A DNA stretch of 64,000 bases from a virus. Each line of letters begins with the position of its first letter. The stretch's first letter is position 1. The notes beneath the pieces are model-generated. The model ran no database searches and was not told where the DNA came from. It saw only the letters and a program-made list of their open reading frames with translations. The translations under genes were made by a program, and so were the position numbers. The stretch covers positions 92,712-156,711 of IMG/VR virus record IMGVR_UViG_3300042197_002147; one strand, given 5' to 3'. Below, in pieces: positions 16,037 to 53,558 of this stretch.

Positions 16037-16755
16037 CAAACTCTCTTTCTTGTTGAAAATAGTTGCGGAATCGCAAACAATGTCAATGTACCAACCGATG
16101 GTACATTGTTTTGTGGTAAGTAGAATCCAGTTTCTATGCCGTAATATTCCCCGAACCCATAGTTTGTTCCTAGAGCAATGGTCGTAGAGTATTCGTCAAA
16201 TGGCAATGCACTTGGCGTAAAGAAAAATGTATGCATGTCTGGGTTGACTGCTTGAATAGCGGGTACAAAATCTTGAGGCACTATATTTTTTGTAATCAAT
16301 TGTGCAGGATTTATTTTAACTTGTTGTGTTTCTTCTACAAGTGTTGGTTCTTGCGGTTTTATTTCATCTTTAAATCTTGCAACTTCGTCCTCAAGACGAT
16401 ATGGCCTTGTTTCCTCTTTTTGATCAATTTTCTTTTTTGGAATATAAGCAAATTGTAATTTTTGAAAAGGAGCAAGTGCTTGTTTATTTTTTTCTTCTGC
16501 TTTTTCTTCTTCTTTTGTTTCTTCTAATTGTGTTTTTTGTAACTCTTTTGCAGAAGAAACTACAGAACCAAATGAAGAAATGTAAGAAGCAGCATTCTTT
16601 ATTATTTGTTCGCCGGCCAATGTTAAAGAAACACTCATTACTATTGTCATAGTATGCAGTGATTTCTCTAATTGTTTTACTTTTTGTTTTGCGTCGTCAC
16701 ATGCCTTTGCACATGTTGTACAACCGCTGTGTTTTTGTTCCGATACTTTAGCCAT
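16036..16755 (-). CDS. Protein with PEP-CTERM-like C-terminus
   Basis: C-terminal VPSVGTLTLFAIPQLFSTRKRV; N-terminal CxxCxxxC and coiled coil. Confidence 0.6.
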   Translation of the reverse strand: MAKVSEQKHSGCTTCAKACDDAKQKVKQLEKSLHTMTIVMSVSLTLAGEQIIKNAASYISSFGSVVSSAKELQKTQLEETKEEEKAEEKNKQALAPFQKLQFAYIPKKKIDQKEETRPYRLEDEVARFKDEIKPQEPTLVEETQQVKINPAQLITKNIVPQDFVPAIQAVNPDMHTFFFTPSALPFDEYSTTIALGTNYGFGEYYGIETGFYLPQNNVPSVGTLTLFAIPQLFSTRKRV

Positions 16756-16797: not shown

Positions 16798-17124
16798 TTA
16801 TGTATTTAATTGTTCTGGTTTGTTTGGTTTATTTTGAGTTGAATCGTCAATTCCATCACCATCTCTGTCTTTTTCATCTTTGATTAGACCATCTTCACAA
16901 ATCATTGGTTTTCGGATGAATTCTCTCCAAGCCCAAAGCAATGATATTAAAACAACAGGAGCATACCAAAGAGTCCATCCATAGGATGGTTTGGAAGCAC
17001 CTTCTTGTGCAATTTCATCTTTAATTGCCATGAGAACAACATTGTCACTGGTATTATCTGGTACTATAAATGGAGTTGTGCATCCTGCTAGTAATAAAAG
17101 TGGTATATATTTTAAGTATTTCAT
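16798..17124 (-). CDS. Putative lipoprotein with TM helix
   Basis: Lipobox LLAGC; second hydrophobic segment; DRDGDGIDD. Confidence 0.65.
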   Translation of the reverse strand: MKYLKYIPLLLLAGCTTPFIVPDNTSDNVVLMAIKDEIAQEGASKPSYGWTLWYAPVVLISLLWAWREFIRKPMICEDGLIKDEKDRDGDGIDDSTQNKPNKPEQLNT

Positions 17125-17133
17125 TGGTACTCC

Positions 17134-17574
17134 TTATGATTTGCTTGGCGTTGCTGCTGCTGTACCGAAATAGAATCCTACTATGCTTAACAATATTTCT
17201 CTATTTTCGGATGACCAGAAAAATCCATTTATTTCAACGAAACTTTTTCTAGCAGTTTCTGGTATCAAACCAAATAATCCTTCTGGATTTTTTACATCAA
17301 CCTCAACGAAGGTAGGAACACCAAAGAAAGGAAGGATAAATGGAGCAGCAAATGCACCAAATAAGACTGTAAGAACTATAATTTGTCTTACAAATTTACC
17401 GGCATCAATACTTACTCTCTGGACTGCTTTATCTTGGTTTTCTGTTGTTTGTTGGTTTGCTTTGATCAATTGCTCGAACATTTGCTTTTGATCTGCACTT
17501 TTTTGTGCCATGAATTTGAACAAAAATCCAGTGACACCTCCTCCAACCATGCTAATTAATTCTGGTGAAAACAT
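17134..17574 (-). CDS. Membrane protein (holin-like)
   Basis: 2-3 hydrophobic helices; IVGFYFG C-terminal motif; AGGAGG RBS. Confidence 0.55.
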   Translation of the reverse strand: MFSPELISMVGGGVTGFLFKFMAQKSADQKQMFEQLIKANQQTTENQDKAVQRVSIDAGKFVRQIIVLTVLFGAFAAPFILPFFGVPTFVEVDVKNPEGLFGLIPETARKSFVEINGFFWSSENREILLSIVGFYFGTAAATPSKS

Positions 17575-19908: not shown

Positions 19909-20763
19909 TCAATCAATGTGACTTTTAAAATTTCTAACCAAATCGGTGACTACCCTTGACTTTTCTTTTTGTGTCAGAGATATTTTTTTATCTCCAGAGT
20001 TCATTTTTCGCATTGCTGTGTTTACGACAAAATATAATTCTTTTCTTGCATCGTCTAAACTCAATTTACCTTTTTTCTTTTTTTGCTTCAAATGATTATA
20101 AACTGGCATAAGAACTTTATTTTTTACTTCATTATTACGCATGATAAAATGCATGACTGATCTTGCTGGATCTTTTTCCTCTTGGAGATGATCTACACTT
20201 TCATCTAATTTAGCAATTTTTTTTGCTTTTTCTTTTGTCGAAAGTGATCTTTTCTTTTCTGGTTCTTTAACCATGGCTTCTTGAACTGGTGCTGGTGCCA
20301 TTTTTGACAACTTACCAGACATTGAGTACAAGCAAGTTCCTTCGTTGTATTCTACATTGACAACCAAAGCGAGTTTTGGTAAGTCTTCTCCTCTATTGAA
20401 TCCCTTTGAGAGATCAGTTGTTGGAGTTGTTCCGAATGCACCTCCATGTAGTTCAACTGGAAATACATTTTGCCCCGGATTTAGTGGAGTTTTCATGTTA
20501 AACTTAAAATCTAAACCAGCGTGATTTAGTCTAGTTCTTAGTTCTACGAGAGCGGCGGCCGCTTCTTCCTGCATATACTCACCGGCCAGGAATTTATGAA
20601 TAAACGCATTTATTCTGGAAATTGAACCACCTTCTCCTATACGGTGAATACCAAAATCGTTAAAAGCGGTTCTGTTTGGATACTCAGAGAAACCATTAAA
20701 TACAGAACCACCTACTGCGTAACTTTCTGCTAGTTTAGATAATATTTGTTTGAACTTTTTCAT
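19909..20763 (-). CDS. Late protein with CTS-like N-terminus (MKKFKQILSKLAE)
   Basis: Upstream TATAAATA and AGGAG. Confidence 0.65.
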   Translation of the reverse strand: MKKFKQILSKLAESYAVGGSVFNGFSEYPNRTAFNDFGIHRIGEGGSISRINAFIHKFLAGEYMQEEAAAALVELRTRLNHAGLDFKFNMKTPLNPGQNVFPVELHGGAFGTTPTTDLSKGFNRGEDLPKLALVVNVEYNEGTCLYSMSGKLSKMAPAPVQEAMVKEPEKKRSLSTKEKAKKIAKLDESVDHLQEEKDPARSVMHFIMRNNEVKNKVLMPVYNHLKQKKKKGKLSLDDARKELYFVVNTAMRKMNSGDKKISLTQKEKSRVVTDLVRNFKSHID

Positions 20764-20789: not shown

Positions 20790-22799
20790 TTACTTTTTCT
20801 TCTTCCCGCCTCTAGCGCGAAGGGTTAAAAATGTGGCAATTCTGTGTTTTGATTCTTCTTCTGTGTCACCTTTTATTGGTTTTGCCTTTACTTTTTTTGC
20901 AGTTCTATCTCTTTTTCTTATTTCTCCCTTTGTCATCGTGCCAGCATTTGATGAATTTACTATTTCTTCTTGTACAAATTCTTCATTTGCCATTTTTTTG
21001 GCATCTCTGGTTGCGATTGCATAAATTATATTTTTTGCTCTTGGACCATATCTTAATTTGAATTTACCTATGTGTTTTTTAAGTTCCTTCACTCTTTGCT
21101 CTTTTGCTGCTGTTTCTTCTGGAGACAAAACTTTTTCTGCTAGTCTTCTTCTTTTAAACATTTTTATAGCGTCTTTTACAGATTTAGATGATTTTGGTGT
21201 TGGTGTTATAACATCAGGTAATGCCATCATTTTTGTATTAAAGTGCATTATTGGGTCATATCCTGCTAAGTTTGGATTTACCTCATCTCCAACCTGTCCT
21301 GTTGCAAAATTTCCACCCATAGACATTACTTCACCCAACATTGCTTTGTTGCAATCTTGACATGCCTCTTCGCATCTGCATCCCCAAACGCGAAGTGCTG
21401 CGTTTATTTTACTCTTTGGATCTCTTGCAGTTTTTGCGCTTGTTCTCTTTCTTTTCATTCCACACATTCTTCCACAAAAAGACTTTCTTCTTTTTTGTGT
21501 TTTTCCTGAAAGTTTGCTAAAACCGCCCTTCTTCTTTGCTTCATCTTTTGTTTCGATTCCGGCATGAATTCCTTGGCGTCTTGCTTCTGCTCTGGAAAGA
21601 CCACCCTCTGGATGGTTTTTACCTTTTTTAAATCCTTTATATGGTTTTGCAGATTTTTTTGCTTCCATTATCACTGATATCATGTCTTTTATAATTGATT
21701 CTTTCATGTGTTTTCCTCTAAAAGTTACTAATCTTCTTAATGTTTCTGTATGTTCTGGTTTTAAATCGGAATATCTCCCTACATGAAGTCCAGTTATTGA
21801 ACTTATTGGATTTTGCACTGGACTTCCATGTTTTGCTGGTGATCCACCCGCACCAACAGGGTGACCAGTTAGCATCTTTCCTTTTCTATCTATTCCTGTT
21901 ATTCTCATACCTTGGGCGTGTTGCTCACTGCCTTTTAGCATAACTCTCGCTACAACTGGAATATTTCTTCCATATTCCTTTGATAATTTTTCAGCATATG
22001 CGAGTGCTCCATGAATACGGTCGTGTGTATCCATGTCTGCTATATCTCCTCTGTGAATTTTGTCTAATAGTCTTTTTCTGTAATTTTCTTGAGATTCTTC
22101 TCTTCTTTGGGCCATTTCACGAATGAATCTCTTGGTTTTTATATTTTCAACTGCCTCTTTTACCGATTTCCAACCACCGCCCTTACTCTTATACCACTTA
22201 GCAGCCCATCCATTTGCATATGCAGATGGATAAACATCAAATTTTGATTTTGCTGCCGCTTTTGCTCTTGCCCACAATTCTGGATTTGTTGGTTTATTTT
22301 TCTCGAATAGTTGTTGAACAGATTCGGATATTTTTCCTTTTCCAAAATTGGAAACATTTACAGGTTTTCCACCTTTTCCCTTGCGATTTGCTACGGGATC
22401 ATGCTTTCTTTTTGCCGCCACAGCCGCAGCCCGTTCCTTTTTTGTCAGTTGGCTTCTTTTCTTGTTTGACATACATTTTGGTTTGGGTTCCCCCGGTTTT
22501 CTCGCGCATGGTCCTACCGCCTCTCCCTTTGAGTTGATTCTTTTCCATCCACCATCCGGGTGTTTTGGATTGAACCAATTTCTTAAATCTTCTTTCATTT
22601 CTACTTTTTTCAGTCTAGAGTAATAATCTGGTAATTCACCAAGATGATGTAATGCAATCATTTTGGCGATATTTGCTTTGGTGGTGTGTTCCTTTTCTAT
22701 TTTTTTACCCATTGCAAGTTGTTTCATTATTGTTTCTAATGACACATCGTGTTTCTTTGCAATGTTTTTTGGCGATTCTGGTTTTTTAAAGTTTTTCAT
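20790..22799 (-). CDS. Multi-module basic virion-associated protein
   Basis: Concatenated modules common in large phages (EKEHT..DYYSRL; EDLRNWF; FDVYPSAYANGW; RRKSFCGRM) separated by xxE sites. Confidence 0.7.
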   Translation of the reverse strand: MKNFKKPESPKNIAKKHDVSLETIMKQLAMGKKIEKEHTTKANIAKMIALHHLGELPDYYSRLKKVEMKEDLRNWFNPKHPDGGWKRINSKGEAVGPCARKPGEPKPKCMSNKKRSQLTKKERAAAVAAKRKHDPVANRKGKGGKPVNVSNFGKGKISESVQQLFEKNKPTNPELWARAKAAAKSKFDVYPSAYANGWAAKWYKSKGGGWKSVKEAVENIKTKRFIREMAQRREESQENYRKRLLDKIHRGDIADMDTHDRIHGALAYAEKLSKEYGRNIPVVARVMLKGSEQHAQGMRITGIDRKGKMLTGHPVGAGGSPAKHGSPVQNPISSITGLHVGRYSDLKPEHTETLRRLVTFRGKHMKESIIKDMISVIMEAKKSAKPYKGFKKGKNHPEGGLSRAEARRQGIHAGIETKDEAKKKGGFSKLSGKTQKRRKSFCGRMCGMKRKRTSAKTARDPKSKINAALRVWGCRCEEACQDCNKAMLGEVMSMGGNFATGQVGDEVNPNLAGYDPIMHFNTKMMALPDVITPTPKSSKSVKDAIKMFKRRRLAEKVLSPEETAAKEQRVKELKKHIGKFKLRYGPRAKNIIYAIATRDAKKMANEEFVQEEIVNSSNAGTMTKGEIRKRDRTAKKVKAKPIKGDTEEESKHRIATFLTLRARGGKKKK

Positions 22800-23425
22800 T
22801 TTTCCCTCGACTGTTCATCAAGATAAACTTCTATTTGATTTCTTGCGTTTGTTATTTCTTTAGCATATTTTTCTGGATCAGACATGACATTTTTTGCTTT
22901 TTGAGGACTGCACCACTGAGACATAATATAACCACAAATCATGTTTTTGTGGTGTATTGGAAGAACGCAGTAGCAATGAATGTTTGCAGATTCAAACGAG
23001 TGTTTTCCAAAACTATCTTTTTGATTTTTTACCAAACATGGCAGTGGGGAATTTTTTGTTACATCTTCAATAAGTGGAGTAAATAGAGATATCAAGAGAT
23101 TGTTTATTTTGTCTCCTTGTGCAGACACACCCTTTGACACGGATTCATGTGTGCAAGACATTTTTCTCATTGAAACTCCATCCATAAAATACTCTCCATT
23201 GTGGAACTGAACCAGTTGAACTCTTGCAGCATCCGTCAAAACTCTTAATTCTGTCAGACATTCATGAATGTTTCCATGAACACTCCAAATGTCTGTTATG
23301 AATTTTTTGTTTTTTATTTTGATGTTTGTTAAAAATTTATAAACAAATGCTCCAAAAACAGCAAACAAGGCAATTCCCAATTCAATCCAGTAATTAAAAC
23401 TTACTTCTGGTAACGGATCTGACAT
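22796..23425 (-). CDS. TM plus GAF-like domain protein (T4 holin T-like architecture)
   Basis: N-terminal TM; RVQLVQFHNG...KMSCTHE. Confidence 0.5.
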   Translation of the reverse strand: MSDPLPEVSFNYWIELGIALFAVFGAFVYKFLTNIKIKNKKFITDIWSVHGNIHECLTELRVLTDAARVQLVQFHNGEYFMDGVSMRKMSCTHESVSKGVSAQGDKINNLLISLFTPLIEDVTKNSPLPCLVKNQKDSFGKHSFESANIHCYCVLPIHHKNMICGYIMSQWCSPQKAKNVMSDPEKYAKEITNARNQIEVYLDEQSREK

Positions 23426-27501: not shown

Positions 27502-28551
27502 TCAATCAACTTTTTTTACAATAGAATTTACTTCGGATTTTAACTTTGCACCTTTTCTAGATTTTAGAAATTTGTTGACATGTCTGTTGACCATTGAATT
27601 TAGATTATTTTCTGCTAAACCATATCCAATTGGTCTAAACATTTGTTGTGCTCCATAATAACCAAAGGCCGGATCTATTGGTTCTCTTCTTCTTTGTGAC
27701 ATGGTTGGTTGTGTGCTTTGACCCACCAAGTTTGATCTAGTTTCTGCGCCAACTGCACCCAAATATTCTGGTTCTCTTATTCTTATTGGTCTACCGGAAC
27801 CATCATCATCAGAACCAAGTAACTTACTGGCTCCGTAACCCAACAAAGCAAGTCTTCCGTATTTTCCTAGTTTTCCTAGTCTTCCTGTTTTTGCCATTTT
27901 GTCTGTTACCCTTACTCTCTGTATTGCTTTTTGTATAGCAGTTTTTTGTGGTCTTGCTATTTTTGTTTGTGGATACTTTGGAGGCAATTGCATATTACCT
28001 TCTCTATAACTAGATGCCATTCTTTCATTTCTTGATCGTGCAATGTTTGCTCTTACTGTTTTTTGTATTTCTGCTTTTGCTTTTGCGGCAGCAGAAACTG
28101 CTTGGGCTCCTTGAGTTCCTGCTTTTGCCGCATCAACTGCATTTGATGTTGTTTTTGCTGCTGTGGCAGCAGCGTCAGTTGCTTTTGCGGCAGTTGAAAG
28201 TCCTTTTGCTGCTTTTCCTAATTTTGCCGCACCTCCAGCAAATGGAATTACACTTGCGGCAGCCATTCCACCTCTCATCGCAGCATCACCATATTGTCCT
28301 TGTACGACATCAACCGCTCCACTGGCAAGATCCATCACAGCACCAACTCCCTGACCAACTACTGGAATAAAACTTGCACCCGCAGATACAACATCTGCAT
28401 AATTTTGAATTGTGTCAACTATACCTCCATCTTCTTCATCGTCTTCTGCGGAAGCTATGAATTTATATTCTTCAAGGTTTTTGCTCTCACTCAAGTAATT
28501 TTTTTGAGTGTTTGCTTGTAACCAGTAAAGATATGTTTCTTTGTTATTCAT
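27502..28551 (-). CDS. Protein with pre-toxin PT-TG-like hydrophobic domain
   Basis: ASFIPVVGQGVGAVMDLASG...GQYGDAAM...AASVIPFAGGAAKLGK. Confidence 0.65.
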   Translation of the reverse strand: MNNKETYLYWLQANTQKNYLSESKNLEEYKFIASAEDDEEDGGIVDTIQNYADVVSAGASFIPVVGQGVGAVMDLASGAVDVVQGQYGDAAMRGGMAAASVIPFAGGAAKLGKAAKGLSTAAKATDAAATAAKTTSNAVDAAKAGTQGAQAVSAAAKAKAEIQKTVRANIARSRNERMASSYREGNMQLPPKYPQTKIARPQKTAIQKAIQRVRVTDKMAKTGRLGKLGKYGRLALLGYGASKLLGSDDDGSGRPIRIREPEYLGAVGAETRSNLVGQSTQPTMSQRRREPIDPAFGYYGAQQMFRPIGYGLAENNLNSMVNRHVNKFLKSRKGAKLKSEVNSIVKKVD

Positions 28552-30140: not shown

Positions 30141-31313
30141 TCAAATAGAATTGTTTTTTCTTTTTAAGGAAATCTCGGCTGCCTTCTTTGCTCTCATGCG
30201 AAGAATTTCTCTTGGAGTCATCTGACTTTCTGGTTTTTGAGGCATTGGTCTTTGACCCAATTTTGCAACTATTTGATCGTGGGACATTCCACCACGATCA
30301 GAAAGGCGATCATATTCTGCATCCCATCTTTCCTCTTCTTCTTTGCCTTCATTTATTTTTTTCTTGCGAATCTGCCGTCTTTGGCGATCCAACATTTTAA
30401 TTGCATGAAGAAGCGATCCTTCATTTTTCTTTTTACGATCTAAAAAGTAACTTGTGTTTACATGATATGGTCTACTGGCAGAAAAATCACCTCTTTCTGG
30501 TTTCCAATCTTCATCCTCTACTTTTTGATGTTCGGTGTTAATTGTGTGCGTCTTTGATAATTTTTTGGATAAAAAGTCATATAAACTTTTTCTAGTATCT
30601 CTCAGATCTCCACTTTTAGTTTTTTGCATCTCTTCACTTGGTGTTGAACTGGTAAATATTATTCGATCTGGATTATGTGATTTTAAATGATGACGAATTG
30701 CAGGCAAAACTGTTCGGAAAATTCCTAAAGACTTGTGACCTTCTTCGTCGGTTTTGCGCGACTCGCCATCAATATCAAAACTGATTTCGCTTGTGGTTCT
30801 TATTCCTTTTCTTTGCAAGGAAGGATGGGATTCTCTGTGATGAATGTAAACATTACCTTCTTTTCCTTCTGGTGTTCTGAAGGAATAAGTGTGTGATCCT
30901 TGTTCTCTGTATTTGGGGCCAAGCATTTCTGCATTTTTTCCGAAAGTGAAATCGGGTCTAAATGTATATGATAAATTATTTGATCCTTTTATTTTTCCTC
31001 GGTATACACGACTATGAGAACTCATTGGATCTAGTACTTTAGTAAAATATGGGTGTTTGCGAATTTTTTCGACAAATTTATCTCTCTCATTAACATCATC
31101 ATCTGTTAATGGTTTTTCTTTTGCTAGTTTAGGAAGTCTTTTGTTTTCCTTGTCTGCTTGTCTTGTTAACTTCACATAATCTTTTAACATTTCTCTGCTG
31201 ACACCTTTAATTGGATAATCTGCATCTCCAACACGAGAATGTTTTGTTGCAAAGAGATTTTGTCTCTTCTTTACTGCTTCATTAAGTTGATTGACAAGTT
31301 TTTCTATTTTCAT
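30141..31313 (-). CDS. Late protein, paralog family with 47264 and 52798
   Basis: EISF.IDG...IFRTV..I..H...P..I.F...R..LY module; LNE/INE sites. Confidence 0.65.
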   Translation of the reverse strand: MKIEKLVNQLNEAVKKRQNLFATKHSRVGDADYPIKGVSREMLKDYVKLTRQADKENKRLPKLAKEKPLTDDDVNERDKFVEKIRKHPYFTKVLDPMSSHSRVYRGKIKGSNNLSYTFRPDFTFGKNAEMLGPKYREQGSHTYSFRTPEGKEGNVYIHHRESHPSLQRKGIRTTSEISFDIDGESRKTDEEGHKSLGIFRTVLPAIRHHLKSHNPDRIIFTSSTPSEEMQKTKSGDLRDTRKSLYDFLSKKLSKTHTINTEHQKVEDEDWKPERGDFSASRPYHVNTSYFLDRKKKNEGSLLHAIKMLDRQRRQIRKKKINEGKEEEERWDAEYDRLSDRGGMSHDQIVAKLGQRPMPQKPESQMTPREILRMRAKKAAEISLKRKNNSI

Positions 31314-32104
31314 TTTGAATATGTAGGTTCACCTTTCTGATTAAATCCAGACACCTTGCCTTGCCACATGGCGCCTTCCACTGATCTTCTTCTGACCAAA
31401 CCAGAACGAACTTGACCACCAGACTTGTTATAAAGGGACATAGCATTTGGTACTTCATGCCACTTTGATGGATCACTTAATTTTCCAGATATTGTCTCAA
31501 AACCTTTTTTGCCATAAAATCCTGTGCCAAAATTATGAGCAAACGATGTTACTGCTGCTTGCTGGTGTGGTTTCATTTTGTCCCAGTGTGGTACTGTCTT
31601 TGATAATTTGTTTTTCATATCTTCAACATGAGACTCAAGATGTTTGTCTGCTTCTTCTCTTGTGACACTATCACCAAGTTTTACTGGTCGTCCATCAGCG
31701 TGTCTTGTCATCCCCCATCCAATTGTCGGAACACCACTTTTTGTTAATTTATCAGCATAAGCATTTGATCTAAAACCTTCAAAATGTTTTATCACACCAT
31801 GCGAGAGATCAGTAAATCCAAGACCATTTGGTTTTGTTGGTTCTTGCTTTTGAACCTCTTTTTGTTTAGGTGCCGGGGATACTTGTGAAACAACCCTATT
31901 ACCAAGAGCATTGGGTTTTTCCTTTTGAGTATGCCCGGCTAGTGATAATGCAATTGGTACGGCTGCAAGACCAGCACCAATTCCTAAATTACGAATGAAA
32001 CTCTTTCCTTTTTTTGAAAAGATTGCTTCGTTTATTTTTTTTGTTTTTTTGGTCTTATACCTACAACCACAAGACTCTTCGTAAAACATTGAAAACGATT
32101 TCAT
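31310..32104 (-). CDS. GH24 lysozyme with CTS-like N-terminus and hydrophobic segment
   Basis: HFEGFR..AY.D...PTIGWG.T, SFAHNFG, GLVRRR..E. Confidence 0.88.
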   Translation of the reverse strand: MKSFSMFYEESCGCRYKTKKTKKINEAIFSKKGKSFIRNLGIGAGLAAVPIALSLAGHTQKEKPNALGNRVVSQVSPAPKQKEVQKQEPTKPNGLGFTDLSHGVIKHFEGFRSNAYADKLTKSGVPTIGWGMTRHADGRPVKLGDSVTREEADKHLESHVEDMKNKLSKTVPHWDKMKPHQQAAVTSFAHNFGTGFYGKKGFETISGKLSDPSKWHEVPNAMSLYNKSGGQVRSGLVRRRSVEGAMWQGKVSGFNQKGEPTYSK

Positions 32105-32481
32105 TCATAAAACTCCGGGTATTCTTTACCATACATTCTTATTAATCTGCCTGCAAGTGCATTTGCTTCATCTTCGTGTGGAGAACCAGTTGAACCATCT
32201 AACATACTAGGGTCATCAATTTCTTCATGTTGTTTTTGATGAACCATTTCATGTGCAATACTTCTGCAAATATCACAAAGAGCGCGGTTCTTTACATAAA
32301 TTTTCATTTCACCATTGCCAAGATTATAATTTGCAGTTGTCATTTCTGGTTCACGAACCACCAACAATTTTATTATTGGTTTTCTTTTAATACCAAGAAC
32401 ATTTGTTGCAAAGTCAACAAAATGCCCAACTTTAGAATTGAGTTCTGTTGCTTCACGAAGATGTTGTTTGAATTTTTTCAT
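32101..32481 (-). CDS. Zn metallopeptidase-like protein with CTS-like N-terminus
   Basis: MKKFKQHLRE; RSIAHEMVH..Q...EDEANA. Confidence 0.75.
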   Translation of the reverse strand: MKKFKQHLREATELNSKVGHFVDFATNVLGIKRKPIIKLLVVREPEMTTANYNLGNGEMKIYVKNRALCDICRSIAHEMVHQKQHEEIDDPSMLDGSTGSPHEDEANALAGRLIRMYGKEYPEFYE

Positions 32482-33116
32482 TATGGTTTTGGTGGTGGTG
32501 GTGGAGGTGGTGGCGGTGGAGGTGGTGGGGGAATCACTGGGATAGGGAAAGGAACCGGGAATATATCTTTCGTAGGAGTTCCCCCCTTGAATGGATATTC
32601 ATACATTGGTGGTTCGTAAGGTTCACCCGGAAGTTTTGGCCAATGATATGGCCAATCTTTATTCCATTTCCACTTTCCTACGGGACTTTCATCTCTTATT
32701 GCCGGTTTGTAAAATCGGTTTCCCGGAACTGCTGGACCGTTCCACCATTGATCCCATTTTTTTGCCCCCTTGTCAAGAAGACCCCATGGAATCACTTTTA
32801 AAGCTAGCTTCGCCAACCATTGGGACAATGATTCAGTTATATAATTTGCAACTTCATTTTTTTGTTGTTCTGTTATCTGTTGATTTAATAAAAATTTATA
32901 GTTATTTTTTATAAAATCTTCATCTTGTAACAGACATTCAAATAGAGTAAGAAGTGCAGCATCTTCTGTTGGTCTTTTTCTATTTTTATCCTCTAATAAA
33001 ATTTTATACATTTCTGGTGAATGATAAAGTTCTGTAATTATTTTTGATTTGTTTTCTAAAATAATTATTTTAAGATTTTCTTGAAGAGTGTATTGTTGTT
33101 GTTCAGTTAAATTCAT
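32481..33116 (-). CDS. Precursor-like protein: helical leader, amphipathic helix, Pro-rich tail
   Basis: ITE/SLSQWLAKLALKVIPWGLL...long poly-Pro. Confidence 0.7.
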   Translation of the reverse strand: MNLTEQQQYTLQENLKIIILENKSKIITELYHSPEMYKILLEDKNRKRPTEDAALLTLFECLLQDEDFIKNNYKFLLNQQITEQQKNEVANYITESLSQWLAKLALKVIPWGLLDKGAKKWDQWWNGPAVPGNRFYKPAIRDESPVGKWKWNKDWPYHWPKLPGEPYEPPMYEYPFKGGTPTKDIFPVPFPIPVIPPPPPPPPPPPPPPKP

Positions 33117-33313
33117 TTTTTTATATCTCTGATAAATTGTTTCAATGGAACATATTTTTTTATAGAGAAGCCCAATCTGTAAATTTTATTTTGAATTTTT
33201 TCAATTCCTGTTGGTTCTGGATAACCAGTTGGTGTGTTTAGTGGACCTATTTGTTTTTTTTGACCAGATGCTTTCTGATTTGCTTTAAAGTTCATTTTGT
33301 TTGAGCTTTTCAT
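33113..33313 (-). CDS. Hypothetical protein
   Basis: Short ORF overlapping both neighbours. Confidence 0.5.
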   Translation of the reverse strand: MKSSNKMNFKANQKASGQKKQIGPLNTPTGYPEPTGIEKIQNKIYRLGFSIKKYVPLKQFIRDIKK

Positions 33314-33818
33314 TTAGAATTTGAATGTATCTGTGTCTCAACATTTCTGGTAAATCGACACTTGGTGGTGGTGAGCCTGGTTTAGGTAATGGTATTGTCA
33401 CATGTTTCCAACCTTCTTGTGGGTCAAAGTGCCATGGATTGTTAGCGGGAATTGTTCCCCACCCTGGCCAAAATGGACCAGGATCTCCGGGATGAAAGTC
33501 TGGACCCCATTGACCGGGTGGAACCCAGTCGCCCCAATTTCCACCACCGGGAGTAAATGGCATATTGGGTGGAATATCTGGATTATATCCTTGCGGTCCG
33601 ATATCATCGCCCTGTCTTATTATACCTCTTATCCAATCTTTTATTACTCTCCTCAGTTCTGGTGGTATTCTTCCCTCTTTAAGTTCGCCTGAGTTTTCTA
33701 AATTAAAAATTATATAATTTAAGAAACTTTCCTCTAACATCATTTTTTCTATGATGTTTGAGCATTTTTTGTGTTCACTTAAAAATTTTGTAACTGATTG
33801 TTTTAGATTCTTATTCAT
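33285..33818 (-). CDS. Precursor-like protein: leader, amphipathic helix, Pro/Gly/Trp-rich tail
   Basis: LKE/GRIPPELRRVIKDWIRGIIRQG... Confidence 0.7.
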   Translation of the reverse strand: MNKNLKQSVTKFLSEHKKCSNIIEKMMLEESFLNYIIFNLENSGELKEGRIPPELRRVIKDWIRGIIRQGDDIGPQGYNPDIPPNMPFTPGGGNWGDWVPPGQWGPDFHPGDPGPFWPGWGTIPANNPWHFDPQEGWKHVTIPLPKPGSPPPSVDLPEMLRHRYIQILNEKLKQNEL

Positions 33819-34002
33819 TTTTGTTTAATCTCTCTTTCCTTATTTTGCAACATTTGTCACAATTACACCTTGTAATTTTTTTACCATTTTTTGACTTATG
33901 ATTTCTTTTTAGTTTTTTGAATTTGTCTTTTTCTTGTTTTCTTTTTCGATGAATATGCTTTGATTTTTTTAAGTTGTCGAGATATTCCTCGTATGAATTC
34001 AT
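33811..34002 (-). CDS. Small highly basic protein
   Basis: K/R-rich, CNCDKCC. Confidence 0.55.
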   Translation of the reverse strand: MNSYEEYLDNLKKSKHIHRKRKQEKDKFKKLKRNHKSKNGKKITRCNCDKCCKIRKERLNKNE

Positions 34003-34006
34003 TCAA

Positions 34007-34738
34007 CTAAATTCCCTTTTTACTTCTTCTCCATGCTCGAACAAGAGCAATTCTGTTTGCTGCATTGTTCAGATCTTTATAAACATTTCCCGATGGTTTT
34101 ACTCCGGCACTTTTAATTGTTGATTTAATTTTATTTTCTGTTGTTGGATCTACTTTGAATCCCATTGCTGTTGAAAAATCTTGTTTTGGTTTTTTACCTT
34201 TAGAAACTTTTTGAGGTTTTTGTTGTGTAGAAACATCTATTTCTTCTTTTACAGTTTCTTGATTTTTCTTTGCAAATCCAACATTCGGATCTCTTATTGT
34301 ATCCAACACCCATTGATTTAGTGGAGAATCTAGCACAGTTTGTGGATTTGCGTTTTGTGAAATTGGGAGTTCTTCAATTCCTGTATCTGGACTGACAAGA
34401 CCCATTTGAATTCCCTTTTGCTTTACCATTTGAAGTCTTTCATTTTGTCTTGCTTTATTTAATGCTTGCCATGGTTTTGCTGCTTTATCAATGTCAACGC
34501 CATATTTTTTTGCAACATTTTTTGCAAAATCATAGTCCTTGGAAGTAATTTCAAAACCCATTCCTAGTCTTGTTTCTTTGTTTTTAGGATCGAAACCAGC
34601 ACCAGCAGGATTTTGAACTAATATTTTTCCTTGGTATCCACCTGCAAGCGCCGAAGCAGCACCCAAGTCATCACCAACAGGGGTAATTCCACCGGGGTCT
34701 ATTTCTCCAACACTGTATTCTTTTAACAATTTTTTCAT
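34007..34738 (-). CDS. Hypothetical late protein (MKKLLKE)
   Basis: Long ORF in operon. Confidence 0.65.
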   Translation of the reverse strand: MKKLLKEYSVGEIDPGGITPVGDDLGAASALAGGYQGKILVQNPAGAGFDPKNKETRLGMGFEITSKDYDFAKNVAKKYGVDIDKAAKPWQALNKARQNERLQMVKQKGIQMGLVSPDTGIEELPISQNANPQTVLDSPLNQWVLDTIRDPNVGFAKKNQETVKEEIDVSTQQKPQKVSKGKKPKQDFSTAMGFKVDPTTENKIKSTIKSAGVKPSGNVYKDLNNAANRIALVRAWRRSKKGI

Positions 34739-35127
34739 TTTAGTCCATTTCTCGTCAGGTTTATAATTTTATTTATCTGAAGATCACATTGTGCTATTCT
34801 TTGAGCTCCTGGCCAATAAATGTAATCTTTTTCTTTGTTTTTCTTCAGATTTAATAGCAAGGGAACTATATTTTTTTCTAATTCCAATAGGCGTGCTTTC
34901 ATCAATTCATCATATTGAGCCTTTACAGCAATTGCACCCTCACAAGTAGAGTTCATTTCTATGATTTGATCTAATTTTGCCTTTATTGCTGTTATTTCTT
35001 CGCTATCGGTTGATGGATTTAATATGGATCCCAACTCATTTTGATCTACTGTACTAAAACCAAAATCAGACCCTTCTTCCATGTATTGTTTTAAAATGTC
35101 GTCTGGAATATTTTCCTGAAATGCCAT
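34735..35127 (-). CDS. Conserved T4-like hypothetical protein
   Basis: DFGFS..D...PLL.NLKKN..K.YIYWP. Confidence 0.7.
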   Translation of the reverse strand: MAFQENIPDDILKQYMEEGSDFGFSTVDQNELGSILNPSTDSEEITAIKAKLDQIIEMNSTCEGAIAVKAQYDELMKARLLELEKNIVPLLLNLKKNKEKDYIYWPGAQRIAQCDLQINKIINLTRNGLK

Positions 35128-35143
35128 ATTGTCCTCTTTTTGA

Positions 35144-35155
35144 TATTTATAAATA
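35144..35155. promoter_or_regulatory. Bidirectional T4-type late promoter
   Basis: Palindrome TATTTATAAATA (TATAAATA on both strands) between divergent genes. Confidence 0.75.
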
Positions 35156-35179
35156 CAAATAAGTAAAGCGGAGACTTAT

Positions 35180-37855
35180 ATGAATCACAAAATAATTACC
35201 GAAAAAGAAAAATATTTAATCTCACAATTCATAAATGAAGAATTAAAAAATTTAGAAAAATTCATACAAACTCAGAGTGTGCTGGAAGAAAAAAAAGAAT
35301 TAAGATCCATGCTGGAGTCTTTGAATAGACCAAACATAACACACGAAATGTTACATGAGGGAAAACTCAAGGAGATATGGAAGTGGGTAAAAAAACTTTT
35401 CGGGGCGGCAGATGATGTTGCTCCACCAAAACCACCAGTTCCCACCCCACCACCACCATTTCCCAACAGACCCTCGCATCGGGTTCCGAATCCAGGAGAT
35501 GATGACTTCCAAGGAGCTCCATGGGACTGGACCGGACCAGAACCATGGGGTCCTTATGATTTAGATCCGTTAGACATTGACCCCAACGATTTAAACGAAA
35601 GTATATCATTAATTGACAGAATCAATGCCCTCGAAGAACTGTCAAATCAGTTGAACAGGAATTTGGTAAATGAATCAACCGAACTTACGAACTATTTGCT
35701 TGAAGCAATGGTCATGTTGAAAGATAAAAATTCAACATATAAAAATCTTTTAGAACGCTTTGGTAAAAAGTTTTTTGCATATTATATACCAAAAAGTACA
35801 TTTGACAGACTTATGGAAAACAAGACAAGAGGCAAGAAAATGGCCCCACCTCTCTTGCCTCCTTTGATTCCACAAGGCAAAAGAAACATTTTTTCAAATG
35901 ACGAAACCAATGATGGAAATATGGCACCACCGTTATTTCCGGGTAGCAGATTGTTGTCAAAATCAAACAGACCCCGTGGAGCATATCCAGTAGATGATGC
36001 TAGAATGGCACCACCGCTTCCAACTCCAAAAACACCTTTTGGTAGACCAACTTCATCTGGTGAACCAGAAGCACCATTCCAATATCCAAGTGGAGAGTGG
36101 AACGGAATTCCAATACCAGAGAATTATAAAAAATCAAACAGTGTTAGAAAGTTTTTAGGTATGGATTCTGAAGATTCAATCACACCACTGCCAGCACCAA
36201 ATATGCCAACTTTGGTTCCAATGAAAGAACCAAAAATGCAACAACAACACGGTGGTTTGATTCCACCGCCACAACAAGAAAGTTTTGTAGATTACAAAAA
36301 AAGGTGCTTAGAATCCTTAAATAAAATTGAAGAACAAATCTACTTATCAGAATCAATAACAAAAACAAAAGAAAATCAAGAGATACTTAAGCTTATACCC
36401 GTCTTGAGAGAAAACATAATTTCTTCTACAAATTATCAACAATTAAATGAGTTTATAGGGATGATAGGCAAATGGTTAGCTAAAAATTGGCCGCAACTTG
36501 CTTGGGACACTGGTGTAGAAACTGGTGTAGATATCTGGAAAGATAGTTATGATGATCCAAACTCTAATCCCGGAGGTTTTGGTCAATGGCCAAAAAATTT
36601 CGATGATGCATTTCCACCGATAACTATTCCAAACCCACCCCCAGGCGGTCTTCCTCCTCCGGGTGCAAATCCCTATCCATACCCACCGGCAAATTTTCCT
36701 CCAAAGGGGCCAGTTTTTGAAAACAAAATTTCATTTATACTCAAAGTAAAAGAACAACTAACTTTATCTGAGAGTATAAAAAAAACCATAGATGGTCAAG
36801 AAAAATTAAAATACATAGATTTTATTTTAGAAAATGCAGAAAGTAAACCAGAATTACTGAATGAATTTGTGCCGTTTGTCATAGGAGCAATTGCCAAAAC
36901 AGCAATGGATTTGGCTATTTGGGATGCACTTTCTAATCCAAATAAGTTCAACTGGTTTGGATTTGGAGGTCCACCAGCACCACCAGCACAAAAAGATCCA
37001 AAAGAGACACCAATAACAATTAAACCATGGAAACCGTGGACGCCACCACCTCCACCTTATTATGGTCAATTAACAGGAAAAACCCCTTCTGGTCAGTCAT
37101 CTGGTGAAAAAACTCCAACCACGCCAAAAGTTTCAGCAGAGGTTACTGAAAAATTCTTAAATGAAAAGAGAAGACGCGGAGGATCATCGGAGCAACCTCC
37201 ACCCCCGCCGCCAGGAGGACCTCTCGTGCCAGGAGTACTTCCACGGTGGAAACATGGTGGAGGGTTGTTGCCACCAAAAACTCCAAAACTTGACAAATAT
37301 TCACCAATGGCAGGATACGAGGACCCTAGTCCTCCATCTCCTCCACCGAATCCACCGCCACCACATGGTCCATGGGGTCCGCCACCACCACCGCCACCAC
37401 CAGGCCCACCACCAGGCCCACCACCGCCACCACCAGGCTCGCCACCAGGCCCACCACCAGGCTCGCCACCAGGCCCACCACCGCCACCACCCGGTTATTT
37501 GATGTCTCGGCCGCCGTCACCATTCCCACCGCTCCCACCACCGCCCCCACCGGGAGGTCGTCCAACTAGGCCTAGTTTCCCACCTCCTCCTCCACCACCA
37601 CCACCTTATCCAATGGTGACTGATATGGGATCGGGATCATCGGTTTACGAAGAACTAATTTCTGATGAACACCGTGTGAAATTGATGAGTTTGATTTCCG
37701 AAAGATATGAAAAGATTTTGATATCTGAAACAATTTCAAAATCTTTAAAATCTCAAGAAGAAAAGAGGCAATTAGAAGAATTGTATAAGTTGGTTTTTGA
37801 TCAAACATCAACATATGACAAATTACCTAATTTTCTGAAAGACTCTTTAAAATAA
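35180..37855 (+). CDS. Repetitive precursor/polyprotein with helical spacers and Pro-rich cores
   Basis: Repeated L(S/I)SE(S/T)I.K...QE spacers; LHE/LNE/LLE sites followed by amphipathic and Pro-rich segments. Confidence 0.8.
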   Translation: MNHKIITEKEKYLISQFINEELKNLEKFIQTQSVLEEKKELRSMLESLNRPNITHEMLHEGKLKEIWKWVKKLFGAADDVAPPKPPVPTPPPPFPNRPSHRVPNPGDDDFQGAPWDWTGPEPWGPYDLDPLDIDPNDLNESISLIDRINALEELSNQLNRNLVNESTELTNYLLEAMVMLKDKNSTYKNLLERFGKKFFAYYIPKSTFDRLMENKTRGKKMAPPLLPPLIPQGKRNIFSNDETNDGNMAPPLFPGSRLLSKSNRPRGAYPVDDARMAPPLPTPKTPFGRPTSSGEPEAPFQYPSGEWNGIPIPENYKKSNSVRKFLGMDSEDSITPLPAPNMPTLVPMKEPKMQQQHGGLIPPPQQESFVDYKKRCLESLNKIEEQIYLSESITKTKENQEILKLIPVLRENIISSTNYQQLNEFIGMIGKWLAKNWPQLAWDTGVETGVDIWKDSYDDPNSNPGGFGQWPKNFDDAFPPITIPNPPPGGLPPPGANPYPYPPANFPPKGPVFENKISFILKVKEQLTLSESIKKTIDGQEKLKYIDFILENAESKPELLNEFVPFVIGAIAKTAMDLAIWDALSNPNKFNWFGFGGPPAPPAQKDPKETPITIKPWKPWTPPPPPYYGQLTGKTPSGQSSGEKTPTTPKVSAEVTEKFLNEKRRRGGSSEQPPPPPPGGPLVPGVLPRWKHGGGLLPPKTPKLDKYSPMAGYEDPSPPSPPPNPPPPHGPWGPPPPPPPPGPPPGPPPPPPGSPPGPPPGSPPGPPPPPPGYLMSRPPSPFPPLPPPPPPGGRPTRPSFPPPPPPPPPYPMVTDMGSGSSVYEELISDEHRVKLMSLISERYEKILISETISKSLKSQEEKRQLEELYKLVFDQTSTYDKLPNFLKDSLK
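37325..37610 (+). repeat. CCA-rich tandem repeats encoding PPPG(S/P) / poly-Pro
   Basis: CCACCAGGC(TCG/CCA) units, including a 24-bp tandem duplication. Confidence 0.85.
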
Positions 37856-37867
37856 TTTAAAGCACAT

Positions 37868-38476
37868 TCAAGAGAATGCCCGTGAGAGTTCCTTTTGAAC
37901 TCTTGCGGGCATTTTCACATGGCTTTGTGGTCTAAAGTTTTTAGGCATCACATCAAGTGCTCGGCGCGATGTCTCAAGATCATATTTTGTTCTTTGTGTT
38001 TTGTATATTTTCCACATATGATGCATATAGATGTAAAGATTAGCGCGTTTGATGTACAACTGTTCATCAAATTTGATACCCCATTGTTTTAATAAACGAA
38101 CGGTTCGTATTTCGCAGTCTCTTTCCATCTCCATGATGACTCTAAACGCTCTGTCTACTTCTTTGTCAGACCATCTGCCATAATTTCCTATTGATACCTC
38201 ATGCACAATAAATTGTGCATTTGATTCCTTTTTCATTTTTTGATCGGAAGATTCTAACCACTGAAGAAAATGGCAGTATTCGTGCGCCAAGACATTCAAC
38301 CAAACTCCATTGTTTTTGGCCACGCGAATTTCTTTTATTGTTCTGTTCGCAAGAAAATATCCCGAACATCGGGATTCCCCGACATTGACATTTTCGCCTT
38401 TTCCAAATATGAGTTTAAACCCATATTCTCTCAAATGATTGCGAATATGTTTCACGAACTCGGCTTCCTTACTCAT
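37868..38476 (-). CDS. HExxH metallopeptidase-like protein
   Basis: LAHEYCHFLQ...ERDCE. Confidence 0.7.
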   Translation of the reverse strand: MSKEAEFVKHIRNHLREYGFKLIFGKGENVNVGESRCSGYFLANRTIKEIRVAKNNGVWLNVLAHEYCHFLQWLESSDQKMKKESNAQFIVHEVSIGNYGRWSDKEVDRAFRVIMEMERDCEIRTVRLLKQWGIKFDEQLYIKRANLYIYMHHMWKIYKTQRTKYDLETSRRALDVMPKNFRPQSHVKMPARVQKELSRAFS

Positions 38477-38545: not shown

Positions 38546-38827
38546 TTATTTTTTATTTTGTCTGCGGCGATAATTCAAGTAGGCAGGAAGAACATAACCA
38601 CCAATCATTCCCATTCCGGTTCCGGCCGCGGCGCCTGCGCCTGCAATTTGTGCCTTTTCTGTTGGAATATTTGTCATACCAACTGAATTGGTGTAATCAG
38701 TCATTGCTTTACCATACATCGCACCGGGAATGGCAAGACTTCCCGCAAGTGTTAAATATTTTAATCTCCACTTGTCTGTTGGTGTAAGGAAACCTTCTTG
38801 TAGTAGATGTTGCTTAAATGATTTCAT
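38546..38827 (-). CDS. CTS-like small protein with hydrophobic Gly-rich helices
   Basis: ATAAATA-5 nt-ATG; MKSFKQHLLQE. Confidence 0.65.
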   Translation of the reverse strand: MKSFKQHLLQEGFLTPTDKWRLKYLTLAGSLAIPGAMYGKAMTDYTNSVGMTNIPTEKAQIAGAGAAAGTGMGMIGGYVLPAYLNYRRRQNKK

Positions 38828-51674: not shown

Positions 51675-52016
51675 TATGATTCCCGGTAAAAAGAATTCTT
51701 TAGATAAATATTGTTATGAAAACATTTAAGCAATATATCAATGAAATCTTTGACGAACGCATAGATTCTGTATTGGCTCAAAAACTGGCACATCATTCAG
51801 AGGAACAATTAAAGAAACATAAAAAACTTCTTTCTATGATGAAAATCGCAATGAATGATCCAAGAATCTTAAAGATAAATCAGCAAATACAAAACCGTCA
51901 AAAAACACAAGAACGCCTCAATAAAAGAGCATAAAATTCTATAGGAATCCTAGAAAATAGGGTCCCCCCTATGATTCCCGGTAAAAAGAATTCTTTAGAT
52001 AAATATTGTTATGAAA
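51675..52016 (+). repeat. Exact 47-bp direct repeat (late promoter plus start codon)
   Basis: TATGATTCCCGGTAAAAAGAATTCTTTAGATAAATATTGTTATGAAA at 51675-51721 and 51970-52016. Confidence 0.9.
51716..51934 (+). CDS. CTS-like small protein (MKTFKQYINE)
   Basis: ATAAATA-5 nt-ATG. Confidence 0.65.
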   Translation: MKTFKQYINEIFDERIDSVLAQKLAHHSEEQLKKHKKLLSMMKIAMNDPRILKINQQIQNRQKTQERLNKRA

Positions 52017-52793
52017 TCGTTTCTTCAATACATCACGGAGGACATGCCAGCAGAAGTTAGTTATGGTATACGACCCTCCGTTAGCAAAAAACCAAGACAA
52101 TCAAAATCAAAATTGATCGGAAAAATTGGTCCATATGAAGTTCACCACCACGCTAAGGATGCCGAGGATGGTCCTACAATATCCATTCGACATAAGGGTG
52201 ATCAAGTCGGTCAAATGGAGCTCTTAAGAGCCGGAAAACATGTCCAAGTATCAGAACCAATGGTGGTGGGAAGTCATAGAGGAAAAAACGCATTAGTAAA
52301 GAATCTAATTCCAAAAGTCTATTCTATGATTGCAGATAAAATTGCACCAGTTCAATCGGGGGAGTTACAGACAAAGCGTGGAAGATCTGTCTGGAGAAGA
52401 TTGTCTGCTCTTCGTCCCTTAAAGATTCACTCTCCATATTCTATCGAAAGATTCGCCCACCCAAAACACCCAACTCTAGCACTTCATGGTGTTCATTTTG
52501 ATGACTATGTGGATGCTCATGGGGGTGGGAATTGGTCGGAGGCCAATCTAAGACGAGCAAAAAGAATATTGGCACAACATGGAATGACAAAACACAGTCT
52601 TGCACAGATGAAAAGAATCAAAGATCTTCCAAACCCTGATGAGTTCAAAAGAACCTTTGTAAACCCAAAAAAGATTGCTAGATATGATCCGGCCAAGCAC
52701 GATTCATTCGTGTATTCGAAGGATGAATATCATGGATCAGCTTCACATATTGTTTTGCGTACTCAACCAAAAGGTAGAAAATCCTCTAAATAG
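52011..52793 (+). CDS. CTS-like protein with GNAT-like domain
   Basis: MKSFLQYITE; V...HRGK...Y...SGELQT..G..VW..L. Confidence 0.6.
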   Translation: MKSFLQYITEDMPAEVSYGIRPSVSKKPRQSKSKLIGKIGPYEVHHHAKDAEDGPTISIRHKGDQVGQMELLRAGKHVQVSEPMVVGSHRGKNALVKNLIPKVYSMIADKIAPVQSGELQTKRGRSVWRRLSALRPLKIHSPYSIERFAHPKHPTLALHGVHFDDYVDAHGGGNWSEANLRRAKRILAQHGMTKHSLAQMKRIKDLPNPDEFKRTFVNPKKIARYDPAKHDSFVYSKDEYHGSASHIVLRTQPKGRKSSK

Positions 52794-52797
52794 TATT

Positions 52798-53292
52798 ATG
52801 AAATCATTTCGTAAATATCTCTCTGAAATCTTTAGGCAACAGGGAACCTACAGTATAAAGCAGGAAAAACATCCTGATCTGAAACACGATTCCGATGAAG
52901 AAGTAACATATGCATTTACACCCACCAACACAAGGGGTGAACCTGATTTCAAAAGAAAAGTAAGAACCACATTCATGAAAACAGGCAAAAACACATGGGA
53001 AGCAATGTTCACCGTGGGTGGTTCTACTCACTACGATCCGGGTGAAGATTTTCCAAGTCATGTGACAAAAAAGGTTTTTGATCATGTGAAGCACTTTGTC
53101 GATACAACAACCGAACTTGCAGGAAAAGCACCGAACATTGAGTATCAGACTTCACATCCAAAGAAAGAGCGCATCTACCAGGCCGTTGCAAAAAGATTAG
53201 GCGTAAGGGCAGAGAACACTGGTGGTTATCTTGATCCCGACTACGATACAAGAAGAAATCGAAGAAAACACCACGAAGAAGAGCCAATATAG
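52798..53292 (+). CDS. CTS-like late protein, paralog of 47264
   Basis: CTAAATA-5 nt-ATG; MKSFRKYLSEIF. Confidence 0.7.
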   Translation: MKSFRKYLSEIFRQQGTYSIKQEKHPDLKHDSDEEVTYAFTPTNTRGEPDFKRKVRTTFMKTGKNTWEAMFTVGGSTHYDPGEDFPSHVTKKVFDHVKHFVDTTTELAGKAPNIEYQTSHPKKERIYQAVAKRLGVRAENTGGYLDPDYDTRRNRRKHHEEEPI

Positions 53293-53377
53293 GAATAGAT
53301 TGAACCTGACTGATTGAGATGTTTTAAAAAAATCTTAGGAAAACTGAAAGTATAAATAGAAATACAAAGGAAACTAT

Positions 53378-53548
53378 ATGATTTTAAAAATAAAAGAAAT
53401 ATTAAAGAAAGTTACTGTCGTTGAATGGGTTGTTTTGGGAATTGCCGTTTTGGCACTATTTGTTGGTTTGACCCATACCCACGACAACGCAAAAAAGCAC
53501 GGTAAAAAGGCAGAAAAAACAGTAGAAACAGTCGTAGAGACAAAGTAA
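53378..53548 (+). CDS. Small membrane protein
   Basis: TATAAATA at 53351, AAGGA RBS, single TM. Confidence 0.6.
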   Translation: MILKIKEILKKVTVVEWVVLGIAVLALFVGLTHTHDNAKKHGKKAEKTVETVVETK

Positions 53549-53558
53549 AGGAAAACAA

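Follow-up and report, generated by a model that had tools for sequence, protein, structure and literature searches.

What does a phage make from a long protein built of repeated helical segments that alternate with stretches of quite different composition? The question is raised by four genes in the last 64 kb of the IMG/VR record IMGVR_UViG_3300042197_002147 (positions 92,712 to 156,711 of 156,711 bases; these 64,000 nucleotides are hereafter the window). They encode a multi-module protein of 891 amino acids (aa) (P0002, 35180-37855, plus strand), a 247-aa protein (P0001, 53559-54302, plus strand), and two proteins of 211 and 177 aa (P0003, 32481-33116, and P0004, 33285-33818, both on the minus strand). 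A sequence-only reading of this DNA had listed these open reading frames (ORFs) and proposed that a Glu/Leu-rich leader ending in (L/I)xE precedes a hypervariable amphipathic helix and a Pro/Gly/Trp-rich tail in each of them, so that the capsid protease would release a library of peptides resembling antimicrobial peptides (AMPs). The four ORFs and all eight core motifs are present, the positions quoted for four of these (35360, 36452, 36866, and 54132) being exact, and the shared grammar goes beyond chance. The 177-aa gene has no significant homolog and is a member by grammar only. The proposal of capsid-protease substrates with conserved leaders and variable cargoes finds strong support in the pattern of sites: the precursors are very probably processed by the phage's own gp21.

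Predicted processing sites in the precursors

Judging by its major capsid protein, which shares 57% identity with its counterparts in Pelagibacter phage Mosig and in marine cyanomyophages, the source virus is a T4-like myophage. Its head module is encoded outside the window, elsewhere in the record, and the genome has a gp21-type prohead protease (genome positions 52567-53214; PHROG 207 match, E = 1e-81; E = 6e-23 against the T4 gp21 structure) with intact GELNH and SSRG motifs. T4 gp21 cuts after L/I-X-E and reduces the scaffold proteins to pieces (PMC9026906). The gp23 of the phage has LTE/A near residue 55, and the equivalent LTE/A of T4 gp23 is at 65.

Two leaders recur among the precursors. 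Leader A (about 95 aa) is common to the 211-aa and 247-aa proteins (E = 2e-7), and leader B (about 65 aa) is the repeated spacer of the 891-aa protein, which in related phages opens stand-alone genes at the same genomic place. The two are treated as unrelated (hhalign probability, 9%). For the analysis of junctions, the last Glu near the leader end was picked regardless of the residue at P3. Leu or Ile stands there in 35 of the 37 distinct homologous modules, as opposed to 18% genome-wide. The junction also tracks insertions and deletions, as it lies at 13 different distances from conserved anchors (7 in A, 6 in B), all of them ending in (I/L)xE. There are 97 such sites in A leaders and 48 in B leaders (45 and 25 in shuffles), and only 3 and 0, respectively, in the 60 aa after the junction. 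Per 100 aa, this corresponds to 5.3 and 5.6 sites in the leaders, twice the density of their own shuffles, and to 0.24 and 0 in the following 60 residues, the genome mean being 1.1. The enrichment is 2.0-fold for (I/L)xE, compared with 1.1 for Ex(I/L), 1.3 for (I/L)xD, and 0.5 for (I/L)xQ. The same site pattern is found in the two unrelated leaders.

When the ORFs of the genome are ranked by their excess of (I/L)xE over composition, the 891-aa protein comes first (22 sites, 8.6 expected), followed by the scaffold protein at the gp22 position, gp21, the 247-aa protein, and the 211-aa protein; the 177-aa protein is eighth. The site density of gp22 (4.8 per 100 aa) equals that of the leaders. Many cargoes also end in LPE plus a short helical follower, and in some chains the follower leads another cargo. 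Redundant cleavage sites are carried by the propeptides of giant phages (PMC9026906), and ejection proteins bear propeptides of 111-130 aa (PMC7411985).

The description of the genes as late is supported by matches to the consensus of T4-type late promoters. Two overlapping TATAAATA boxes, one on each strand (35144-35155), face the 891-aa gene on one side and, on the other, a tightly packed minus-strand run made of the 177-aa gene, the 211-aa gene, and a phage lysozyme. Another TATAAATA box (53351-53358, plus strand) precedes a 56-aa ORF, which is followed by the 247-aa gene. RNA reads from one run cover a neighbouring gene and not the precursors, which has no bearing on precursor expression.

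The locus is no assembly artefact, because the stretch was recovered without differences, as two contigs, from the probable source run, and because parts of the 891-aa gene occur in an independent 2017 study, where the first Pro-rich tail carries indels. The poly-Pro repeat falls on a contig break, and there is less certainty about its length. The sequencing runs that bear the locus are freshwater metagenomes.

Searches of the four proteins and both module alignments against Pfam and PHROG returned nothing significant, and tblastn of the precursors gave no match in cultured phages. A profile search over 1.8 billion representatives gave 19 matches, about 16 of them true members and three repeat artefacts. 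Relatives were gathered by protein searches and one anchor-gene scan; scans of the IMG/VR, JGI, and GTDB collections for patterns of precursors or leaders gave no confirmed locus. In syntenic loci the flanking genes are 58-97% identical, and the precursor genes differ in number and build: A genes stand alone or in tandem rows of up to three, a single chain can carry two A modules or a B module joined to one A module, and B chains have one or two cargoes. The family is accessory, since the precursors are missing from phages in which the gene neighbourhood is otherwise the same, and it is limited to a narrow clade. Leader A has one weak match in a distant record (E = 0.002). AlphaFold models it as a confident helical domain, with a predicted local distance difference test (pLDDT) of 79-96 per block, and the core as low-confidence helices; the model of leader B is mediocre (pLDDT, 70). 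Fold searches with the leader A model gave generic helical matches only, the best being VIA (Z = 5.2, root mean square deviation 4.3, 104 residues aligned), and no viral structure matched under E = 0.001.

Modules, cargoes, and their variation

The 891-aa protein opens with a leader of its own (aa 1-60, 35180-35359) ending in LHE, which weakly resembles a shortened leader A (blastp E = 0.005 for its end, shuffle p = 0.02). Cargo 1 (aa 61-140, 35360-35599) is an amphipathic Trp/Lys helix followed by an acidic Pro/Trp tail, and an LKE inside it could trim five residues. Next comes a conserved helical spacer (aa 141-213, 35600-35818). It includes LLE/RFG, which had been counted among the hypervariable cores, a status ruled out by the 49% identity between the spacer and a homolog that reads VLE/QFGERFF. 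Cargo 2 (aa 214-314, 35819-36121) has a basic start and no amphipathic helix, and contains the three MAPPL repeats, found as reported at 35840, 35921, and 36005. Leader B occurs three times: copy 1 (aa 365-424, 36272-36451) and copy 2 (aa 510-562, 36707-36865) end in LNE, and copy 3 (aa 822-891, 37643-37855) is nearest to the family consensus. The repeated spacer L(S/I)SE(S/T)I.K is indeed present in each (36344, 36764, 37721), with mutual similarity beyond shuffles (p = 0.0005-0.006). The alternation of spacer and core holds for the first two copies and fails for the third, which no cargo follows. Cargo 3 (36452-36706) has a moderately amphipathic helix and a Pro/Gly/Trp tail. Cargo 4 (aa 563-662, 36866-37165) has a hydrophobic, uncharged N-terminal helix (KD19 = 1.55) and a Pro-rich tail and ends in LNE; cargo 5 (37166-37642) has a short Arg-rich start and poly-Pro/Gly repeats and is not amphipathic. 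All these modules are on the plus strand, as is the gene.

The other precursors are simpler. In the 211-aa protein, leader A (aa 1-95, 32832-33116, minus strand) is a predicted helical domain that holds eight (I/L)xE sites and ends in ITE. The single predicted product (32481-32831, minus strand) has 116 aa, net charge +6, and zero such sites; its amphipathic Trp-rich helices precede a Pro/Trp tail with a poly-Pro end. The 177-aa protein, for which searches gave no significant homolog, has a 48-aa leader ending in LKE, then a 110-aa cargo whose first helix is strongly amphipathic and whose tail is of the Pro/Gly/Trp kind, and finally a closing LPE site and a helical follower. The 247-aa protein consists of an N-terminal helix, a Pro-rich segment, leader A ending in IME (53877-54131, plus strand), and a 56-aa cationic cargo of net charge +7 (54132-54299, plus strand). 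Its ortholog P0036 has LSE at the junction. In one relative (L035:193-525) the N-terminal helix is on a separate 111-aa gene (59% identity over 44 aa), and it is possibly a third type of leader.

Most cargoes of the family have at their start a cationic amphipathic Gly/Trp/Lys helix whose pattern is AMP-like. Over the 37 modules, the first 18 residues after the junction have a mean charge of +3.2 and a hydrophobic moment of 0.43, as against -0.2 and 0.23 after the 601 other (I/L)xE sites of the genome. Gly, Lys, and Trp abound in the cores, and recurring types are common to different phages. A composite AMP-like rule is satisfied by 26 of the 37 modules and 7 of the 601 sites, but its p-value is not relied on because the rule was set after the cores had been inspected. 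When core profiles are matched to natural PDB sequences, lacticin Q and magainin-2 are among the best, a likeness of pattern that is not significant (E = 2.2). About five of the eight cores named in the sequence-only reading start with such a helix. The 18-residue moment is clearly high for LHE/GKL and LKE/GRI, moderate for LNE/FIG, ITE/SLS, and IME/RFG (the last being strong over 11 residues), and at background for LLE/RFG, LNE/FVP, and LNE/KRR.

The idea of a library of AMP-sized peptides is not supported. No (I/L)xE separates helix and tail, hence the predicted products are long: 51-179 aa in this genome, with a family median of 96 aa and a median net charge of +1, on the assumption that (I/L)xE cutting acts alone (extra trimming by other proteases is conceivable). 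Natural AMPs, by comparison, usually have fewer than 50 residues (PMC6887943). Pro makes up 23% of the tails, Gly 11%, and Arg about 4%, and Asp plus Glu outnumber Lys plus Arg. The hallmark of Pro-rich AMPs such as Bac7, apidaecin, and oncocin is a cationic Arg/Pro-rich sequence with PRP repeats. The PRP motif is absent from all four proteins, whose Arg content is 2-6%, and the analogy with these ribosome-binding peptides is not supported.

Conserved leaders with variable cores had also been expected across relatives, and they are found. Among close pairs, the identities of leader, core, and tail are 81%, 51%, and 37% in A and 72%, 39%, and 28% in B. Synonymous differences climb from leader to tail and are near saturation in tails that stand behind 90%-identical leaders. 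The ratio of nonsynonymous to synonymous rates (dN/dS) is 0.18-0.45, below 1 in all parts, so this test did not find positive selection on the cores. Because synonymous differences rise too and dN/dS is low, the variation indicates an exchange of cassettes and not demonstrated positive selection. Close relatives thus keep the leaders, and the cores and tails, as the alignments show, are swapped, duplicated, and chained.

A proposed route and its competitors

These observations fit a scheme in which the four genes encode modular precursors of internal head proteins, made late in infection, as their promoter consensus suggests. The precursor would enter the prohead core, probably, by analogy, via its conserved helical leader; the 111-aa propeptide of SPN3US gp47 has been proposed to target the prohead (PMC7411985). 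Cutting by gp21, which in T4 takes place inside the prohead, would itself imply such entry. The gp21-type protease would very probably cut after (L/I)xE, and the many-sited leader would be shredded as the scaffold is. What is left would be mini-proteins of about 55-180 aa, mostly with a new cationic amphipathic N-terminal helix and a Pro/Gly/Trp tail that is disordered and in many cases ends with a second site (LPE) plus a short follower. Since they are free of sites and have the size of internal proteins, the products most likely remain in the head, from which they would be ejected with the DNA in the manner of T4 IPI-III and the SPN3US ejection proteins. In the weakest step, the helix would bind the host membrane and place the tail as a variable binding module, with possible roles in entry, superinfection control, or counter-defence. 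An anchor is the preferred function because the membrane-type helix is constant and the long tail variable. Diversity arises from the swapping, duplication, and chaining of cassettes behind constant leaders described above. Taken as a whole, from gp21 maturation inside the head to a helix that binds membranes after release, this chain has in our judgment an even chance of being right.

Several points weigh against it. Taken one by one, only 17 of the 37 cores exceed their own shuffles at p < 0.05, and three cargoes of this genome have no amphipathic helix. (I/L)xxE is enriched as well (1.55-fold), which implies that part of the signal is helical periodicity. The counts of modules are not independent trials, because the homologs are related. 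The family is absent from loci of more distant phages whose neighbouring genes are the same. The leaders differ from T4 capsid-targeting sequences, and targeting to the head is proposed by analogy. Finally, the fragments of T4 core proteins mostly exit the head (PMC9026906), which makes retention of the products uncertain.

A bolder version makes the capsid protease the safety switch of a library of membrane-active polypeptides, which would be shuffled, silenced by their leaders, and armed only in the prohead. Release, either from the virion or at lysis, would then permeabilise the membranes of hosts, competitors, or grazers. We regard both the switch and this mode of release as tentative ideas, doubtful on present evidence. 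If true, the phage genes would be the viral equivalent of multi-copy AMP precursors.

It is unlikely, and somewhat more so, that the fragments are plain membrane-disrupting toxins, kept silent by the acidic leader until head maturation and directed, from virions or lysates, at competitors, at grazers that ingest virions, or at cells already infected. The layout does match that of AMP genes, families of which combine a conserved pro-region with a mature part that is hypervariable (PMC6887943), the swapping of cassettes is suggestive of an arms race, and toxin-carrying freshwater phages have been proposed as "Trojan horses" (bioRxiv 10.1101/670067). The core profiles also pick lacticin Q and magainin-2, but without significance. 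Furthermore, the products far exceed the typical length of AMPs and are often neutral or acidic overall, dN/dS stays below 1 in every part, and lytic peptides ejected at entry would damage the phage's own infection.

The precursors might instead be accessory scaffold or filler, that is, core components like gp67, gp68, and IPIII whose leader works in assembly and whose basic helix and Pro-rich tail merely bind or space DNA, with no role after ejection. One would then understand why the leaders are the most conserved and the sole confidently folded parts, why their site density matches that of gp22, why one leader copy has no cargo, and why low-complexity tails are freely exchanged. However, a filler needs no Trp/Gly/Lys helix placed directly after the last site at 13 spacings, nor would one expect recurring core types common to different phages. 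We give this explanation a low probability.

Lower still is that of a lysis aid coupled to maturation, in which fragments leave the prohead, build up along with matured heads, and disrupt the envelope as disruptin does. Cleavage peptides of T4 presumably escape through openings in the shell (PMC9958956), and the lysis peptide gp28 of phiKT is cationic, amphipathic, and 56 aa long (bioRxiv 10.1101/515445), equal in size to the +7 product of the 247-aa gene. Two precursors share a gene run with the phage lysozyme, and the candidate lysis genes tested gave no match to spanin or holin families. These candidates, a lipoprotein-like gene and two membrane-protein genes (16798-17574 and 22796-23425, minus strand), could nonetheless form a lysis set of their own. 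In addition, the lysozyme of the run has a capsid-targeting-like start, which indicates head cargo, lysis is achieved otherwise in relatives that lack the family, and the high diversity of cargoes and their long tails are left unexplained. The most improbable alternative is that gp21 plays no part, the proteins being intact, small, and membrane-associated, with LxE sites due to helical periodicity (as the enrichment of (I/L)xxE and the compact fold of leader A would allow), or being substrates of another protease (the flanking HExxH genes match metallopeptidases weakly), and it is countered by the site that tracks indels, the lack of enrichment of the reversed, Asp, and Gln motifs, the motif ranks adjoining those of gp22 and gp21, and the presence of both HExxH genes in phage loci that lack precursors.

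Known systems and neighbouring genes

The closest known systems are the T4 proteins IPI, IPII, IPIII, and Alt, gp21 substrates that are ejected with the DNA. The precursors share with T4 internal proteins their place among late genes of T4-like phages, the removal of an N-terminal piece after L/I-X-E, and small, accessory, variable mature parts. In place of the 10-residue capsid-targeting sequence, the precursors have a many-sited helical domain of 65-95 aa; they also have several cargoes per chain and C-terminal followers, and their cargo is a helix with a low-complexity tail instead of a folded enzyme or inhibitor. No sequence homology to T4 internal proteins was found. Because the MKxF-type start seen on other late genes of this phage is absent from all four precursors, they are not strict members of that family. 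Ejection proteins of giant phages (phiKZ, 201phi2-1, and SPN3US gp47, gp53, and gp54) resemble the precursors in having propeptides of 111-130 aa with redundant Glu-specific sites, but they belong to another virus lineage, with an S/A-X-E motif in phiKZ and large mature parts, and multi-cargo cassettes are not described for them in the literature examined. With no homology to them, the precursors are not members of this family either.

Among peptide precursors, those of dermaseptin-type animal AMPs likewise join a conserved Glu-rich pro-region to a variable cationic amphipathic helix. The magainin precursor is multi-copy, and such single and multi-copy forms resemble those of the phage. The phage precursors differ in having no signal peptide, in their viral Glu-specific protease, and in a tail of 40-150 aa that stays on the helix; sequence likeness to animal AMPs is not significant (E = 2.2). 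Disruptin, the product of phiKT gp28, is also a phage-made cationic amphipathic peptide, of the same 56 aa as one predicted product, but is described as the product of a lysis gene and not as a protease-released, variable family with many cargoes. Cyanobactin-type multicore precursors of ribosomally synthesized and post-translationally modified peptides (RiPPs) have a constant leader and variable cores between flanking recognition motifs, in repeated cassettes. The label RiPP-like had been used for the phage genes, and it is apt for the layout of conserved leader and variable core, single or repeated. It is not apt for the chemistry: the cores are about ten times longer, and the scanned neighbours held no modifying enzyme or dedicated maturation peptidase (only lysozyme, weak HExxH matches, or nothing). 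None was seen at the loci of relatives. Several neighbour genes have no family, so that an unknown enzyme is conceivable. The system is not classed as a RiPP because such enzymes were not found.

The literature searched, with incomplete coverage, holds no description of such precursors. We regard them as an undescribed version of the gp21 cargo system in which the AMP-like payload is the new part. The head-protease cargo route of T4, in which single proteins are tagged, may thus extend to precursors that are built from cassettes and whose payloads can be exchanged, and exact predicted N-termini are now available for a family without annotation. Leaders that do target proheads would amount to a new loading module; helices that do act on membranes would mean that the phage makes a naturally diversified AMP-like set with a built-in activation step.

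Within the cluster, a 66-aa gene between two precursors (33113-33313, minus strand) bears a QIGP-N/D-TP-G motif that recurs within the tail of the related multi-module precursor P0016, and because of this common motif it may take part in cassette shuffling. Two small HExxH proteins flank the cluster (32101-32481 and 37868-38476, both minus strand). They match Peptidase_M78 and SprT-like families weakly (E = 0.03-0.04), and both are conserved in phages without precursors. At positions 53222-53908 of the genome (outside the window; L001:3223-3909), an extra 228-aa basic gene separates the scaffold gene from gp21; its short leader ends in INE and is followed by a Gly/Ala/Arg-rich helix.

About ten other late genes start with a T4-like capsid-targeting peptide. 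The start MKxF...E is found on unrelated genes at 14455-14712, 19909-20763, 31310-32104, 32101-32481, 38546-38827, 51716-51934, and 52011-52793, several of which sit behind xATAAATA boxes; by this start they are candidates for a second, classical cargo route of the same phage. The lysozyme (31310-32104, minus strand) has such a start and an INE site, behind which a basic stretch and then a helix of hydrophobic character (KD19, 1.59) are found, and it is possibly head-packaged and membrane-anchored. Both it and the 93-aa gene at 38546, as probable head cargoes, have Gly-rich hydrophobic segments that are exposed after a site, which would fit a general use of membrane-seeking cargo. A late-region protein of 349 aa (27502-28551, minus strand) without family match has Gly/Ala-rich hydrophobic hairpins that resemble the membrane-inserting segments of polymorphic toxins.

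As for the host, two adjacent genes (15410-16755, minus strand) end in PEP-CTERM-like sorting tails, and the first was placed among PEP-CTERM proteins by atlas (score 0.98). Such tails point to a putative Gram-negative host with exosortase, and we take their wording to recall planctomycetes; a host search with the PEP-CTERM-like gene gave no result. Between 38900 and 52000 of the window, the GC content is 50-59%, compared with about 35% elsewhere, which may reflect host composition, and this region carries a MoxR-type AAA gene and its probable vWA partner.

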